From Candidatus Brocadia sp. (GTDB lineage: Bacteria; Planctomycetota; Brocadiia; Brocadiales; Brocadiaceae): DNA of 32,000 nucleotides. Position 1 is the first letter of the stretch, and every line of letters starts with the position of its first letter. This document shows, piece after piece, positions 13,156 through 23,392 of the stretch. A program made the translations under genes and the position numbers. Below the pieces are notes generated by a model. The model was not told the origin of the DNA. It worked only from the letters and a program-made list of their open reading frames with translations, and searched no databases. The DNA is taken from NCBI GenBank assembly GCA_021650915.1, contig CP091279.1, positions 2,550,001 through 2,582,000 on the forward strand, in the 5' to 3' direction.

Positions 13156-13449
13156 ATGAAAACAGCCGCTATTTCAGAATTAAAGGCATCTATAAGTGAA
13201 TACCTCTCCAAAGTAAGGGCTGGAGAGGAAGTGCTTGTTACCGACAGAGGAAAACCGATTGCCAAGCTGATACCTCTTGATAGGGATGAAACAGATGTAC
13301 CGGCGCATTTGCTTATGCTTGAAAAAGCCGGATTAGTTCGTATTGGCAGGGGCAAGATAAAAGCCAGCTTTTGGGATTTGGCAAGACCGAAGGATGAAAA
13401 GGGGCTTGCCCTTAAGGCGTTAATCTCTGAACGGGGGGAGGAAAGATGA
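13156..13449 (+). CDS. type II antitoxin, Phd/YefM family
   Basis: 97-aa ORF. N-terminus MKTAAISELKASISEYLSKVRAGEEVLVTDRGKPIAKLIPL is the canonical Phd/YefM fold signature. SD GGAGG lies upstream. There is a 4-nt ATGA overlap with the downstream toxin. Confidence 0.88.
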   Translation: MKTAAISELKASISEYLSKVRAGEEVLVTDRGKPIAKLIPLDRDETDVPAHLLMLEKAGLVRIGRGKIKASFWDLARPKDEKGLALKALISERGEER

Positions 13450-13883
13450 TGTTTTGGGATGCCTCTGCCATTATCCCTCTTTGCATTGATGGATTGCAGA
13501 CTAAAGTCGTCAAAGGTATCTTAAAAAAGGATAGCTCCATGGCGGTCTGGTGGGGAAGCGTTGTTGAATGTCATTCAGCCTTTGCCCGTCTTCGCCGTGA
13601 CAATGCTTTGAAGCATCCGGAGGAAGATCGGGTGAGGGATATCCTGGCAATACTGGCAAATGCATGGACTGAGGTTGAACCCAGCGGCGATATCAGGGAT
13701 ATAGCTTCACGTCTTCTTTTGACTCATCCCTTGCGCGCAGCAGATTCTCTTCAGTTGGCTGCAGCCCTTGTCTGGGCTAACAAAATTCCTAAGGGGAATT
13801 ATCTTGTGTGCCTGGACCACAGATTACGAGATGCAGCCAGAAAAGAGGGGTTCATATTAATGCCTTCCGCATTCCCCGAATAA
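13446..13883 (+). CDS. vapC: type II toxin, PIN-domain ribonuclease VapC
   Basis: 145-aa ORF translationally coupled to the antitoxin. Conserved acidic residues sit in FWDASAIIPL, EVEPSGD, AADSLQLAAAL and VCLDHRLRDAA contexts typical of PIN domains. Confidence 0.88.
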   Translation: MMFWDASAIIPLCIDGLQTKVVKGILKKDSSMAVWWGSVVECHSAFARLRRDNALKHPEEDRVRDILAILANAWTEVEPSGDIRDIASRLLLTHPLRAADSLQLAAALVWANKIPKGNYLVCLDHRLRDAARKEGFILMPSAFPE

Positions 13884-14398: not shown

Positions 14399-16828
14399 AT
14401 GAAGATTCGACATAAACTTGTGATCCTTTTGGCCGTATTGCTGGTTATCTTGGACAGCGTGCTCGTATTTTTTGTCTACAACCGCACCCGCCGGGAATTT
14501 ATTAAAGAAGTCCGTGAAAAGGCAAAATTAATTGCCATGGAGCTAGAAACCACCAGGAATTATCTTGCATCTGCCTTGCAAGTTTCCAAAATTGGTATCA
14601 CGGAACAGACAAAGTTTTTTATTCCTGCCGTTTCCGGTCATGCTATCGGGGTAAAATTTGCTGAAGAGACGGGTTATATTATCAAGCAAACCAGCAGAAA
14701 ATATAGAAATTTGTTTAATAAGCCAGATCTCTTCGAAGAGGATGTATTGCGAAAGATGGAGGAAGACCCCGGGCTCTTTGAATATTGGTCTGACGACGTT
14801 GTTAATGGGAAAAGAGTTGAGCGGTACCTGTACGCTTTATATGTAAAAGAGGATTGTCTGCTGTGCCACGGCTCTAAGGAGAAGGCGCCGGAACTCATTC
14901 AAAAGAATTATGATGTCGGCTACGATTATAAGATCGGAGAATTACGGGGGGCCATTAGCGTTGTCATCCCAAATGAAATTGCCGAACGAAAATTTGCAGC
15001 AAACGTTATCTTCTTTACCACCGCCAGTTCTGTCAGCATTGTGATGATCATTATTATCATTTTTCTCACCACGAGAAAGTTTATGCGGCCGATTGAGCGG
15101 TTAACAGCAGCAGTGGCCGCTATTACCAAGACGGGTGATCTGACAACGAAGGTGGATGTCTTGTCCAAAGATGAGGTGGGGCAGCTTGGCAGGGCATTTA
15201 ATGATATGTCTGTCAAATTGCAATCTACGTATGCGACCCTGGAACAACGCATTGCCGAGAAGACTACTCATCTGCAACAGGCAATTTTAGCCTTAGAACG
15301 GGCGAACAGGATGAAATCTGAATTTCTGGCTAATATGTCCCACGAACTCCGCACACCGCTCAACGCAATCATCGGCTTCGCAGAGGTGTTACGGGACAAA
15401 ATCGCCGGCGACCTGAATGAAGAGCAGGCGGACTTCGTGAACGATATCCACAGCAGCGGTTCTCATCTCCTCCAGATGATTAACGACATCCTGGATTTGT
15501 CTAAGATTGAGGCAGGCAAAATGGAACTTCAATACGGAGTTTTTCCTGTCTCAGAGGCCATTGAGGAAGTATATACCATAATAAAAGGCCTTGCCAGCAA
15601 AAAACATCTGGAATTAAAGACCGTCATACTGACAGATGTGAAAAGCATCGAGGCAGATCGCGTTAAATTTAAACAAGTCTTATATAATCTGCTGTCGAAC
15701 GCCATAAAATTTACCCCGGAAAACGGAAAAATTGTTTTAGAAGCCGGCGTTATGGAGGAGATGCTGCAGCTATCGGTATCTGACACGGGCATTGGGATGA
15801 AGTCGGAGGATCAGCAAAAAGTATTTAAGGAATTCTGGCAGGCAGACAGCTCTTTTGCGAGAAAATATGAAGGTACAGGGCTAGGGCTCGCCCTGACGAA
15901 GAGAATTATTGAGATGCACGGGGGGAAAATCTGGTTTGAAAGTGAATACGGGAAAGGAAGCGTCTTTTATTTTACATTACCCATCAAAGCCTCGGCAAAA
16001 AAACCCGAACCGAAAGAGGCCAAGACTAAACCGCGCCCGACAATACCCGTGGGAGAAAAGGATGCAAAGACCGTTCTGGTTGTGGAAGATGATCGCATGG
16101 CCGCCGACCTTCTTACCCTGTATTTGACAAATGGAGGATATCGCGTTATTATCGCGACAGACGGGGAAGAGGCTATCAAAAAGGCAAAGGAATATCAGCC
16201 ATTTTTGATTACATTGGATATTATGCTGCCCAAAAAAGACGGATGGGATGTTCTTTCTGAACTCAAAAATTCCCAAGACATTGCCAATATACCCGTCATT
16301 ATTATATCAATGGTGGATAACAAAGATCTCGGCTTTAGCCTTGGCGCAGTGGAATATTTAATGAAGCCCATCGACCGGTTAAAACTGATTGAGACGGTAA
16401 ACAGCTGTATCCCTGCTAAGAAGGACAAAGGCAAACCAATGAAAATATTGGTTGTCGATGATGACGAAAAGGCCGTTAAGTACATGAGCTCCGTTCTTGA
16501 AAGCGCAGGTTTTGATGTACTAAGGGCGTACAGTGGTGAAGCGGGGATCAATCTGGCTATAAACAGTAGTCCTGATCTTATGATACTAGACCTTATGATG
16601 CCGGAAGTCAGCGGCTTTGATGTTGTTGAAAAGCTGAGGGTACATCCTACAGCGAAGGGAATTCCTATTATTATCTGCTCTGCAAAGGACATTACCCCGG
16701 AAGACAAAAAGATATTAAACGGCCATATTTTGGCCATTGTCCAGAAGAGCAGCCACACAAAAGAAGACCTTCTTGCTATGATTAGAAAGACAGAACAGTT
16801 ACAGGTGAAAAAGGCCGATACGCAATAA
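14399..16828 (+). CDS. hybrid sensor histidine kinase: periplasmic c-type-heme (DUF3365/Tll0287-like) sensor, HAMP, HisKA, HATPase_c and two receiver domains
   Basis: 809-aa ORF. TM1 (LVILLAVLLVILDSVLVFFVY). Periplasmic domain with a CXXCH motif (CLLCH, nt 14855-14869). TM2 (VIFFTTASSVSIVMIIIIIFL). HAMP (RPIERLTAAV...FNDMS). H-box SHELRTPLNAI. N, G1 and G2 boxes (NAIKFT, DTGIGM, GTGLGL). Two REC domains (VLVVEDD...LDIMLPKKDG and ILVVDDD...LDLMMPEVSG). Confidence 0.88.
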   Translation: MKIRHKLVILLAVLLVILDSVLVFFVYNRTRREFIKEVREKAKLIAMELETTRNYLASALQVSKIGITEQTKFFIPAVSGHAIGVKFAEETGYIIKQTSRKYRNLFNKPDLFEEDVLRKMEEDPGLFEYWSDDVVNGKRVERYLYALYVKEDCLLCHGSKEKAPELIQKNYDVGYDYKIGELRGAISVVIPNEIAERKFAANVIFFTTASSVSIVMIIIIIFLTTRKFMRPIERLTAAVAAITKTGDLTTKVDVLSKDEVGQLGRAFNDMSVKLQSTYATLEQRIAEKTTHLQQAILALERANRMKSEFLANMSHELRTPLNAIIGFAEVLRDKIAGDLNEEQADFVNDIHSSGSHLLQMINDILDLSKIEAGKMELQYGVFPVSEAIEEVYTIIKGLASKKHLELKTVILTDVKSIEADRVKFKQVLYNLLSNAIKFTPENGKIVLEAGVMEEMLQLSVSDTGIGMKSEDQQKVFKEFWQADSSFARKYEGTGLGLALTKRIIEMHGGKIWFESEYGKGSVFYFTLPIKASAKKPEPKEAKTKPRPTIPVGEKDAKTVLVVEDDRMAADLLTLYLTNGGYRVIIATDGEEAIKKAKEYQPFLITLDIMLPKKDGWDVLSELKNSQDIANIPVIIISMVDNKDLGFSLGAVEYLMKPIDRLKLIETVNSCIPAKKDKGKPMKILVVDDDEKAVKYMSSVLESAGFDVLRAYSGEAGINLAINSSPDLMILDLMMPEVSGFDVVEKLRVHPTAKGIPIIICSAKDITPEDKKILNGHILAIVQKSSHTKEDLLAMIRKTEQLQVKKADTQ

Positions 16829-16956
16829 ATCACTAGCGGTGTTGCAGGCAAAAAGGCAGCATCTCATAAATAAACCGGTTGTGAGAATGCAACACATTCT
16901 CCAAAGGTAAAATCCGAGCTTCAAAACCCCAACCTATTTTGATGAAGGAAAAAAGT

Positions 16957-17331
16957 ATGCCGGACAAAAATGTAATGGTAGTTGAAGATAATGAGAAAAA
17001 CAGAAAACTCATGCGCGTTGTGCTTAAGTCAAAGGGGTATAATGTGATTGAGGCAACTACCGGAGAGGAGGCATTAAACCTATTAAAGAACCAAAAACCC
17101 AATATTATCATGATGGACATCCAACTCCCCGGCATAGATGGTCTTACCCTGATAAAGCAGATCAAGGCAGATGCCATGACAAAAGAAATTCCCATCATCG
17201 CAGTTACTGCTTATGCCATGAAGGGAGATGAACAAAAGATACTGGATACGGGCTGTGAAGCATACATGAGCAAGCCAATTAATACCCAGGAATTACCGAT
17301 TATTATTGAAAAATATATAAAAAAAGAGTGA
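16957..17331 (+). CDS. single-domain CheY-like response regulator
   Basis: The ORF is open from 16939. ATG at 16957 is preferred because GAAGGA lies 7 nt upstream. VMVVEDNEKN...MDIQLPGIDG...AVTAYAMKGD...SKPI gives the full receiver signature (DD, D, T, K). Confidence 0.85.
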   Translation: MPDKNVMVVEDNEKNRKLMRVVLKSKGYNVIEATTGEEALNLLKNQKPNIIMMDIQLPGIDGLTLIKQIKADAMTKEIPIIAVTAYAMKGDEQKILDTGCEAYMSKPINTQELPIIIEKYIKKE

Positions 17332-17393
17332 TCATTTACCGCACGGGCTGCACGAACGCACGGAAGGGCAAAAGCGAAAAAAACGGGGAAAAT

Positions 17394-18128
17394 ATGAGTA
17401 AACCGAAAATATTAATAGCGGATGATATCAAACAAAACGTAAAACTCCTTCGAGTAATTCTGGCAGCCTCTGAATACGATGTCGTTGAGGCGTATGATGG
17501 TGAGGAAGCATTAGCGAAAGCAAAGGGCGAGCATCCTGATCTGATTTTATTGGATGTCATGATGCCAAAGATGACAGGCTATGAGGTATGCCAGAAACTG
17601 CGTGCAGATGAGATAACTAAGAATATCCCGATTGTCATGATCACCGCCTTGCATGAAATGGACGACCGGATCAAGGGGATTGAAGCGGGAGCTGATGACT
17701 TTATTAGCAAGCCTTTTAATAAGGCAGAGCTGCTTGCCAGAATAAAATCACTATTACGCATGCGGCCGGGAAAAGAGAAGCCGGGGGAAAAAGACGAAAC
17801 GGCTGTTTTGGAATCAATCTTGTCCAACCTGAAAGAAGGTATCATCGTAACCGACGGGCAATGGAAGATCAGGAATATAAATCAAACGGCATATGAGCTT
17901 TTGCATATTCAGGAAACGGACATTAAAAATGCAGATATCTTGCCACACTTATCGCGTATGAAGTTGTCTTTACCGATGGAAGTAATTACCAATACCCAGG
18001 AGAAAACTACTGATTTCCAGATTGCCGATTCAAATGCGGAAGGTCCGGTAAATGTAAATGCAAGAATGACGAAGATATTTGATGCACAGGGCAATGTAGC
18101 CGGAATTACGTTTAACCTGAGAAAATAA
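17394..18128 (+). CDS. response regulator with C-terminal PAS-like domain
   Basis: The ORF is open from 17328. ATG at 17394 (MSKPKILIADD) is preferred, with a purine-rich GGGGAAAA stretch just upstream. Receiver domain: ILIADD...LDVMMPKMTG...MITAL...SKPF. The C-terminal roughly 105 aa (LESILSNLKEGIIVTDGQWKIRNINQTAYELL...) looks like a PAS fold. No DNA-binding or enzymatic output domain is present. Confidence 0.8.
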   Translation: MSKPKILIADDIKQNVKLLRVILAASEYDVVEAYDGEEALAKAKGEHPDLILLDVMMPKMTGYEVCQKLRADEITKNIPIVMITALHEMDDRIKGIEAGADDFISKPFNKAELLARIKSLLRMRPGKEKPGEKDETAVLESILSNLKEGIIVTDGQWKIRNINQTAYELLHIQETDIKNADILPHLSRMKLSLPMEVITNTQEKTTDFQIADSNAEGPVNVNARMTKIFDAQGNVAGITFNLRK

Positions 18129-21932: not shown

Positions 21933-22091
21933 CTTTCATCTGTCGTCCATCGTCTGTTATCTGCCAATATCCTGCTACCCCTTATTTTATAACCTATTAT
22001 AAACTGTTTTTAAGAGAACTCAATACCCTATTTTTAAAGGGTGACCGCTGTTATTTCGTCTGAAATTACCTTCTGTACGGTCATTTTTTTC

Positions 22092-22119
22092 TTGACAACT
22101 AAAAAAACCGTGTTATTTT
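22092..22119 (+). promoter_or_regulatory. sigma70-type promoter for the riboswitch-led transcript
   Basis: TTGACA (22092-22097), a 16-nt spacer, then TATTTT (22114-22119). It lies in the divergent intergenic region between nadC (-) and the + strand locus, about 50 nt upstream of the aptamer-like element. Confidence 0.45.
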
Positions 22120-22169
22120 AGCCGTATTATTTATAGTTAGTTTAAAAACTAACGTGAAATACAAAGGGC

Positions 22170-22256
22170 ATTACGATAAAGGCAAACCCTGAGCGATCAG
22201 GGGACGCAAAGTACAGGGTCTTTTGTAAGGGCGTATTGCATACGCCCATCTATCTG
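22170..22256 (+). promoter_or_regulatory. candidate GEMM-I (c-di-GMP-I class) cyclic-dinucleotide riboswitch aptamer
   Basis: AGGCAAACC (22180-22188), then a 6-bp hairpin CCCUGA-GCGA-UCAGGG with a GNRA tetraloop (22187-22202), then GGACGCAAAG (22202-22211). Next comes a second helix containing the perfect hairpin GGGCGUAU-UGC-AUACGCCC (22229-22247). This reproduces, from memory, the conserved core of the V. cholerae Vc2 aptamer (GGGCAAACC-AUUC-GAAA-GAGU-GGGACGCAAAGCC). It is followed by an intrinsic terminator and then a gene. Confidence 0.6.
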
Positions 22257-22266
22257 ATAAAAAGAC

Positions 22267-22318
22267 AGCCTTACTGCCGAAGATGTTTCAGAACATTTTT
22301 GCAGTAAGGCTTTTTTTG
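22267..22318 (+). terminator. intrinsic terminator / attenuator (expression platform of the candidate riboswitch)
   Basis: 11-bp perfect stem AGCCTTACTGC (22267-22277) / GCAGTAAGGCT (22301-22311), followed by T7 (22311-22317). It lies in a 5' leader, since no + strand gene upstream needs termination. It ends 99 nt before the ATG at 22417. Confidence 0.7.
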
Positions 22319-22416
22319 TTTGGAGAGCGTTTGTTGGAAAGAGGGTATCATTGACTGAATGTTCGAAAGATCGGCATTTTAACTCATAGGTAATCTTATT
22401 GTGAAAGGAGTTGAAG

Positions 22417-23166
22417 ATGAAGATATTAGAAAATATTAAACAACCCTTCTGGATGGGTCTGGTTGTTTTGACAGCTATGCTGACAATGCCTGGTATCGTG
22501 TTGTCTGCATCGAAACAGAAACAGAATAGGGGTTTTACTGATTCTTTCATGTTCGATGAGTGCACCGGTTTTTCATCCACCGGATGCAATCCCTTTTTCA
22601 TTCTTGAACCAGGCCATCAGCTCGTTTTGGAAGGAACTGAAGATAATGAAGAAATCAAATTGATCATAACCGTGCTTGATGAGACCCAGGATATAACGAC
22701 AAACGAGACAGGTCTCGTAACAACCAGGATCGTGGAAGAAAGAGAGTCTATTGACGGTGAGTTGTTTGAAGTCTCAAGGAATTTCTTTGCGATATGCAAT
22801 CGGGATAACAGCGTATTCTACTTTGGAGAGGATGTGGATTTCTACGAAGATGGAGTGATCGTCAGCCACGATGGTTCCTGGCGGGCGGGTGTTGACGGAG
22901 CAAGGGCTGGCATCATCATGCCGGGGACGATCCTCCTGGGTTCCCGATATTTCCAGGAGGTAGCGCCAGACGTTGCCATGGACAGGGCTGAAATTTTGAG
23001 TATAAATCAGGTTGTAAAGACACCGGCAGAGGAGTTTAAAAACTGCCTGAAAACAAAGGAGACCACGCCCCTGGAACCAAACGCAAAGGAATTTAAATTT
23101 TATGCACCGGGGGTTGGACTCATAAAAGATGGCGTGCTATTGCTTACCGAAATAAATCACCTGTGA
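22417..23166 (+). CDS. secreted protein of unknown function
   Basis: The ORF is open from TTG 22411. ATG at 22417 lies 6 nt after AAAGGAG. Signal peptide (FWMGLVVLTAMLTMPGIVLSA|SK). The mature part is beta-rich (FFILEPGHQLVLEG, VFYFGEDVDFYEDG, GSWRAGVDGARAGIIMPG, TTPLEPNAKEFKFYAPGVGLI). It resembles a widespread uncharacterised secreted-protein family, but I cannot name a domain. Confidence 0.75.
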   Translation: MKILENIKQPFWMGLVVLTAMLTMPGIVLSASKQKQNRGFTDSFMFDECTGFSSTGCNPFFILEPGHQLVLEGTEDNEEIKLIITVLDETQDITTNETGLVTTRIVEERESIDGELFEVSRNFFAICNRDNSVFYFGEDVDFYEDGVIVSHDGSWRAGVDGARAGIIMPGTILLGSRYFQEVAPDVAMDRAEILSINQVVKTPAEEFKNCLKTKETTPLEPNAKEFKFYAPGVGLIKDGVLLLTEINHL

Positions 23167-23340
23167 GATTGCCTTTACATCATCTTTTTATTTTTGACTA
23201 ATTTTCTCACGGAGCGCCATGCGATAAAAAGAGACGATCAGGGGCAAATCCCTGACAACTACAGGAAACATGGAGTAAATGGTCTTCTCAACCATCAAGG
23301 ATGTAGTTAATGACGTGCCGTATCCTTGAACGAAAAAGAC

Positions 23341-23392
23341 AGCCTTACTGCGGAAATGTTTCCTAACAATTTTTGCAGTAAGGCTTTTTTTG
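23341..23392 (+). terminator. intrinsic terminator, near-identical paralogue of the 22267-22318 hairpin
   Basis: Same 11-bp stem AGCCTTACTGC (23341-23351) / GCAGTAAGGCT (23375-23385) plus T7 (23385-23391). It lies 175 nt after the stop of the 22417-23166 gene and 141 nt before the ATG at 23533. Confidence 0.7.

Follow-up and report, generated by a model that had tools for sequence, protein, structure and literature searches.

A c-di-GMP class I aptamer and a probable antiterminating ON switch ahead of an exported-protein gene in Candidatus Brocadia

Introduction

What controls the expression of an uncharacterised exported protein in Candidatus Brocadia, and which cyclic dinucleotide would be read by the RNA in front of its gene? 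The question is raised by the leader at positions 22092–22416 of a 32-kilobase (kb) stretch of Candidatus Brocadia DNA (the window), which precedes a gene for a 249-amino-acid protein at 22417–23166 on the plus strand. The initial annotation had read this leader as a GEMM-I attenuator before an exported uncharacterised protein, composed of a promoter, conserved boxes, a GNRA-capped hairpin, a second helix and a strong intrinsic terminator, and had further proposed a possible specificity for 3',3'-cyclic GMP-AMP (3',3'-cGAMP). The general reading is upheld here by the Rfam match, the conserved core, covariation and the overlap of the aptamer with the terminator, while the proposed specificity is not. 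In our reading, given a probability of roughly 0.85, the entire arrangement is explained by a canonical GEMM-I riboswitch for c-di-GMP (cyclic diguanosine monophosphate) in the 5' leader of the gene, acting as a kinetic, antiterminating ON switch.

Identity and structure of the aptamer

The scan of the whole window against 4227 Rfam families at their gathering thresholds produced a single match, located at 22172–22282 on the plus strand and belonging to RF03167 (c-di-GMP-I-GGC; clan CL00126). Its score of 63.6 bits exceeded the gathering score of 59 (E value 5.4e-13 for that whole search), and the match covered the full length of the model (positions 1–80). A second member of clan CL00126 also reached its own gathering score, and the orthologous leader of B. 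carolinensis (locus L007) matched RF01051 with 59.1 bits, above that family's gathering score of 35. The aptamer is real, far beyond chance. Its parts are given below, with P1, P2 and the three junctions placed by the Rfam alignment:

22172–22282, plus strand: aptamer of the GEMM-I (c-di-GMP class I) type, built around a junction of three helices and identified by Rfam, pairing and covariation
22172–22175 with 22278–22282, plus strand: helix P1
22176–22181, plus strand: junction J1/2 (AUAAAG)
22182–22207, plus strand: helix P2, with the GNRA loop GCGA at 22193–22196
A22208 and A22209, plus strand: junction J2/3
22210–22275, plus strand: helix P3, the long second helix
22229–22247, plus strand: distal hairpin of P3, GGGCGUAU-UGC-AUACGCCC, within an insertion of about 35 nucleotides (nt) relative to the short RF03167 model
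G22276 and C22277, plus strand: junction J1/3

The boxes, the GNRA hairpin and the second helix of the initial annotation were all found, in the order given there, within 22180–22275: AGGCAAACC occupies 22180–22188, CCCUGA-GCGA-UCAGGG 22187–22202 and GGACGCAAAG 22202–22211. The distal region of P3 varied in both sequence and length among the orthologues; since the RF01051 model carries a distal P3 stem at the site equivalent to 22229–22247, a long P3 of this kind is usual among its members.

In the window aptamer each of the 21 modelled pairs is of a standard type, and in an alignment of five related aptamers 95.2% of the cells form standard pairs, supporting the P1/P2/P3 junction in the related leaders as well. 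Compensatory changes on both sides were present in six pairs of P2 and P3, compared to 1.8 ± 1.1 in shuffled alignments (none of 500 shuffles reached the observed value), all six being contributed by one distant sequence from a Candidatus Rokuibacteriota genome (L056). When the pairing partners were slid by 1–3 columns as a control, pairing fell to 27–44%. The covariation is support rather than independent proof, and it is sufficient for a known family.

The ligand-binding site

The positions that contact the ligand were mapped onto the window through two characterised aptamers, Vc2 and Gs1761. In Vc2 the pairs G21-C46 and C22-G45 adjoin the ligand and helix P1a contains G14-C93 (PMC11705072), while the junction residues are G14, C15, A16, C17, A18 and G19, followed by G21 (PMC7288161); G-alpha is recognised by G20, and G-beta has C92 as its pairing partner (PMC6140456). 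In Gs1761, the cGAMP riboswitch of Geobacter, J1/2 comprises A9-A14, P2 begins with C15-G40 and J1/3 consists of G74-C75 (PMC6274999), A14 being the equivalent of Vc2 G20 (PMC6140456). It follows from these published pairs that the unpaired bases of J1/2 end with G20, which sits immediately 5' of the two pairs preceding AAACC. The three Gs of GGGCAAACC in Vc2 are G19, G20 and G21.

In the Rfam alignment P2 of the window opens with G22182-C22207 and C22183-G22206; with J1/2 at 22176–22181 and P2 opening at G22182, the G20-equivalent is therefore G22181. The base to which the initial annotation had drawn attention as an A at the G20 position is A22180, the equivalent of Vc2 G19, so that the suggested GEMM-Ib type goes back to a numbering of Vc2 that was off by one; the actual position is a G in the window, in five of the five related aptamers and in the RF01051 consensus. 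A G instead of an A in this column is among the outcomes that the initial annotation had itself named as refuting its reading. The RF01051 consensus, AAaGGCAAAcc with the first G unpaired, has an A at the G19-equivalent and the same motif as the window, and as judged from these alignments it is Vc2 that is the unusual one there. The remaining contacts were assigned as A22208 (A47-equivalent), C22277 (C92), A22179 (A18) and C22205 (C44). The binding triad G22181/A22208/C22277, mapped by alignment via Vc2 and Gs1761, is G/A/C, the c-di-GMP type, and none of the G20-, A47- and C92-equivalents varies among the five related aptamers of the alignment.

Terminator and proposed switching

The aptamer runs directly into the element that would carry out the regulation:

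22267–22317, plus strand: intrinsic terminator, with the 5' arm at 22267–22287, the 3' arm at 22292–22311 and the U-run at 22312–22317

The hairpin at 22267–22311, followed by the U-run at 22312–22317, had a computed free energy of -27.9 kcal/mol (z -5.96) and is the strong intrinsic terminator of the initial annotation. Its 5' arm has 16 nt (22267–22282) in common with the 3' strands of P3 and P1 and with J1/3, which contains the C92-equivalent, and the aptamer and terminator folds are thus mutually exclusive. In folds of the growing transcript, the aptamer helices P2 and P3 made up the minimum-energy structure at the ends 22282, 22290 and 22300, while the terminator prevailed from 22311, once 22301–22311 had been transcribed. 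For the full leader, the terminator fold reached -74.6 kcal/mol, compared to -49.3 kcal/mol for the fold with the aptamer enforced.

According to the proposed mechanism, transcription would begin a few bases past the promoter at 22092–22119 and the aptamer (22172–22282) would fold during RNA synthesis. With no ligand bound, the terminator's 3' arm (22301–22311), once transcribed, would displace the 3' strands of P3 and P1, the more stable terminator would form and, by default, transcription would end about 100 nt ahead of the start codon. With c-di-GMP in the junction, G22181 would bind one guanine and C22277 the other, with A22208 stacked between them; in this ligand-bound state P1 and P3 would be locked, the 5' arm of the terminator would be unavailable and the polymerase would pass the U-run into the gene of the 249-amino-acid exported protein. 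High c-di-GMP would accordingly turn the gene ON.

This reading is carried by the identity of the aptamer, its binding-site nucleotides, the exclusivity and the energies of the two folds and the conservation in orthologous leaders, while several points weigh against it. The ligand (c-di-GMP) and the direction (ON) are predictions made from the sequence. The best Rfam model is RF03167 and not RF01051, the RF01051 score of the window being masked by clan competition, also when 22050–22450 was scanned by E value, and the compensatory pairs depend on a single distant sequence among five aptamers. The columns of RF01051 with CUAA...uAuG, which we take to be the tetraloop receptor, are gapped in the alignment of the B. 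carolinensis orthologue, and no canonical receptor was seen by eye in P3 of the window, though P2 is capped by a GNRA loop, so that tertiary docking may be different from that in Vc2. Finally, no terminator was found at the Rokubacteria copy, which probably works differently, and the expression platform is thus lineage-specific.

A real aptamer with another mode of action, either as an OFF switch, as a translational switch or as an inactive relic before a constitutive attenuator, is considered improbable. In its favour, the aptamer fold is the less stable of the two folds by about 25 kcal/mol, which makes read-through wholly dependent on kinetic trapping; a decayed copy 1 kb downstream indicates that such elements do decay in this genome; and the Rokubacteria homologue has no terminator. 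However, every base that does not vary between relatives and is strongly conserved in the Rfam consensus is intact here, unlike in the downstream copy, and the location of the 16 common nucleotides in the 3' strands of the aptamer is the arrangement of an antiterminating ON switch. Furthermore, the ribosome-binding site is located about 90 nt beyond the terminator and is unpaired with the aptamer in the computed folds, and aptamer and terminator are conserved together in at least four distinct Brocadia-like sequences.

Related leaders

Apart from the B. carolinensis leader, which has both aptamer and terminator, the two elements were present together at four loci (L133, L134, L136 and L137), before proteins with 67–69% identity, while at L135 an intact aptamer with a terminator is placed after the gene. 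The terminator is conserved in L007, L133 and L135. At three further loci (L130–L132) the contig start cuts through the aptamer. The Rokubacteria aptamer (71.9 bits) precedes a homologue with 56% identity.

A covariance model of our own was built from the five aptamers and used to scan species and metagenome loci of the protein family. It detected the riboswitch in two of the 80 species loci and gave a confident match in none of the 43 metagenome loci, and Rfam scans of 33 of these loci agreed with it. The riboswitch is not a trait of the protein family, and few members carry it. A search of metagenomes for close relatives returned only proteins with at most 67% identity, none of them with a riboswitch. 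One weak match of our own model (19.8 bits, at L088) was rejected, as it overlapped a coding sequence and had no Rfam support.

The independent short-read contigs of L002–L004 and L130–L132, which come from different samples, all begin at one point in the 3' end of the aptamer, as seen in their first 26 bases. This common start lies near window position 22259, where a 60-nt repeat begins, suggesting that the assemblies break on the repeated riboswitch/terminator segment; the genome may hold more copies of the riboswitch.

The downstream second copy

The repeat leads to a second element past the stop codon of the gene:

23231–23392, plus strand: degenerate second riboswitch copy, with an aptamer-like part at 23231–23357 and a terminator with U-run within 23333–23392

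The 60-nt direct repeat (23333–23392 against 22259–22318, 83% identity) spans P3's 3' strand and the complete terminator with its U-run; terminator and U-run are intact. The aptamer-like part scored 20.3 bits with our own covariance model, while Rfam gave no match to the clan at 23231–23392 even at E<=10. Its core is broken, with GGGACGCAAAG changed to GGAAACAUGGAG, CUGCCGAAG changed to CUGCGGAAA and P2 shortened. In the relative at L135, an intact c-di-GMP-I aptamer (RF01051, 45.6 bits) with a terminator was found at the same post-gene position (1132–1236 of that locus). Most simply, 23231–23392 can be read as a riboswitch fossil, with its terminator now ending the gene that lies upstream of it, though it may have taken on a new function.

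A more far-reaching interpretation would make the downstream copy a GEMM-I-derived aptamer sensing a different ligand or none, the gene being bracketed by two related attenuators with different inputs and its protein family acting in anammox granules as a matrix or aggregation factor induced by c-di-GMP. The copy has ACAUGGAG in place of ACGCAAAG and an altered 3' junction, but such a combination as a whole is given very little credence next to a fossil.

Rfam class and ligand type

The top-scoring Rfam model was RF03167 not only for the window but also for the L133-type leaders and L056, and from this label one might expect a c-di-GMP-I-GGC variant in which an altered binding-site base suggests a different or unknown ligand. 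We presume that GGC in the name of the variant stands for bases 20/47/92, and position 37 as the defining base is our own reading of the name together with the consensus. The RF03167 consensus, GACGCGAAg, shows conservation of a G at model position 37 (equivalent to A47, right after the G-C and C-G pairs), while the window has A22208, and the match line of the window's GACGCAAAG against the consensus is blank at that position. The motif ACGCAAAG was present in five of the five related aptamers, and the B. carolinensis orthologue, which differs by a few bases, fitted RF01051 best. The higher RF03167 score is explained by the common short-P3 scaffold, not by the diagnostic base. With the diagnostic G absent and a near-identical orthologue in RF01051, the GGC variant is highly unlikely: on the evidence of the alignments, the RNA of the window is a plain c-di-GMP-I aptamer and the RF03167 label is misleading here. 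A description of the GGC variant was not found in Weinberg et al. (2017, NAR).

The scaffold itself resembles the aptamers of the Geobacter type in the P3 sequence (GGGUC...GACAGCCnnnCUGCCGAA) and in the GCGA loop. A GEMM-Ib aptamer responding to 3',3'-cGAMP could be suspected from this likeness, which was drawn partly from a presumed sequence of Gs1761 (its named residues agree with the cited papers), and from the presence of AGGCAAACC where Vc2 has GGGCAAACC. This is the least credible of the alternatives, since the differing base is the G19-equivalent and not the G20-equivalent, which is G22181 and a G throughout the related aptamers and the RF01051 consensus, and since wild-type Vc2, with a G there, discriminates strongly against cGAMP (picomolar affinity for c-di-GMP, only about 10 uM for cGAMP; PMC6140456); the lack of a GGDEF gene among the 36 open reading frames (ORFs) of the window scanned against Pfam adds weak evidence, limited to 32 kb.

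Promoter and leader layout

With c-di-GMP retained as the predicted ligand, the rest of the leader is organised in the order promoter, aptamer, terminator, ribosome-binding site and gene. The elements outside the switch are:

22092–22119, plus strand: sigma-70-like promoter, TTGACA at 22092–22097, N16 and TATTTT at 22114–22119, with 10 of 12 matches
22136–22153, plus strand: small 5' leader hairpin GUUAGUU-UAAA-AACUAAC, present upstream of the aptamer in the minimum-energy fold of the whole leader
22404–22410, plus strand: ribosome-binding site AAAGGAG, 6 nt 5' of the ATG, read from the sequence

The TTGACA-N16-TATTTT promoter is present as initially annotated, with a TG at 22111–22112, two bases ahead of the -10 element, and transcription would start near 22126. 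A comparable TTGACA promoter was found in the B. carolinensis leader, and the AAAGGAG motif likewise precedes the orthologous genes.

When the whole leader is folded to minimum energy, UACAAAGGGC (22160–22169) pairs with the 5' strand of P3 (22218–22227). This could be a helper (anti-antiterminator) helix favouring the terminator state; L007 allows a similar pairing, while by eye none could be drawn in L133.

The segment just 3' of the terminator (GGAGRGCGUUUGUU...) is conserved in Brocadia-like leaders (window 22319–22416, L007 470–530, L133 1395–1440), and it holds mini-ORFs of 4–8 codons, which are short and non-conserved. In B. carolinensis there are about 300 additional bases between the riboswitch terminator and the ribosome-binding site (L007 500–870). 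A piece of this extra stretch (ttcgaggtgttRgcgatagaRgc...cagacaat) recurs 5' of the homologous gene in L135 (95–200), and the common stretch could be either a shared inserted element or a further conserved leader segment.

The regulated exported protein

22417–23166, plus strand: regulated gene for the 249-amino-acid exported protein, with a signal-like N-terminus followed by an all-beta domain; C49 and C127 are invariant

The N-terminal hydrophobic segment of the protein ends in LSA-S and was judged by eye to be a signal peptide. Neither Pfam nor NCBIfam returned a family for the protein, and a few of its homologues have a sub-threshold DUF3108-like match at the C-terminus or a type IX secretion tail. 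The homologues numbered at least 7991 at E<=0.001, the best 120 being 55–78% identical. The family is distributed over many bacterial phyla and also archaea (Nitrososphaera, Methanothrix), with 80 genome loci at 49–78% identity, and its alignment has 42 invariant columns, including the two cysteines. AlphaFold2 produced a confident all-beta model with 14 beta strands and a mean predicted local distance difference test (pLDDT) score of 88.4. A Foldseek search of this model against PDB gave nothing at E<=0.001, and the best match of a PDB profile search with the protein had an E value of 0.82.

Source and gene neighbourhood

An identical protein with the same gene neighbourhood is also present in the NCBI assembly GCA_000987375.1 (contig LAQJ01000286.1), and in one source the identical protein is recorded under Candidatus Brocadia sp.; the host is an anammox planctomycete (Candidatus Brocadia). 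Upstream of the riboswitch gene are nadC, kdsB and pyrG in divergent orientation, while a 101-amino-acid ORF, a radical SAM gene and a DUF6754 gene are located downstream.

About 4 kb upstream of the riboswitch, on the plus strand (14399–18128), there is a signalling cluster, consisting of a hybrid histidine kinase whose sensor domain is Tll0287-like, together with a stand-alone receiver and a receiver-PAS protein. Neither GGDEF nor EAL domains were detected by Pfam among the 36 ORFs scanned in the 32-kb window. A further plus-strand pair comprises a Phd/YefM-type antitoxin ORF (13156–13449) and, overlapping it by 4 nt, a 145-amino-acid ORF without a family match (13446–13883); the pair at 13156–13883 looks like a type II toxin-antitoxin system with an unrecognised toxin.

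Significance and comparison with known riboswitches

For riboswitch biology the locus is a routine case, a textbook c-di-GMP-I aptamer detectable by a standard Rfam scan. Its value there is corrective, both for the slip in Vc2 numbering behind the cGAMP claim and for the RF03167 label, which misleads without its diagnostic base. For anammox biology the value is modest: one concrete gene is probably induced directly by c-di-GMP, whose levels have been correlated with the production of extracellular polymers in granules of anammox bacteria (PMC11224092). The link to c-di-GMP makes the function of a very large unannotated family of exported proteins testable.

With Vc2 and the RF01051 family the window RNA shares the three-helix junction, a 6-nt J1/2 ending in G, the GNRA-capped P2 and the G-C and C-G pairs that open P2 and are followed by AAACC. 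Also common to them are GACGCAAAG, in which the bulged C is the C44-equivalent and the intercalating A the A47-equivalent, UGCC at the 3' junction, where the C92-equivalent is found, and the location in a 5' leader with an expression platform. In contrast to Vc2, which has a G at position 19, the window has the A of the family consensus; its P3 is short and Geobacter-like, the distal hairpin varies and no 11-nt tetraloop receptor is recognisable there; its platform is, as far as can be deduced, of an antiterminator/terminator ON design; and its host is an anammox planctomycete.

The RNA resembles RF03167 (c-di-GMP-I-GGC), its best-scoring covariance model, in the short-P3 scaffold, but where that model has its conserved G, at the A47-equivalent, an A stands both in the window and in every orthologue. 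The likeness to the GEMM-Ib aptamer Gs1761 (PDB 4YAZ) includes the scaffold, the 6-nt J1/2, the G-C of J1/3 and a very similar P3 sequence, while the specificity base is G22181 in the window and A14 in Gs1761. The genetic context differs as well, with an uncharacterised exported protein in the window and extracellular electron-transfer genes for Gs1761. The Geobacter GEMM-Ib examples are transcriptional ON switches, which is also the mode of action proposed for the riboswitch of the window.

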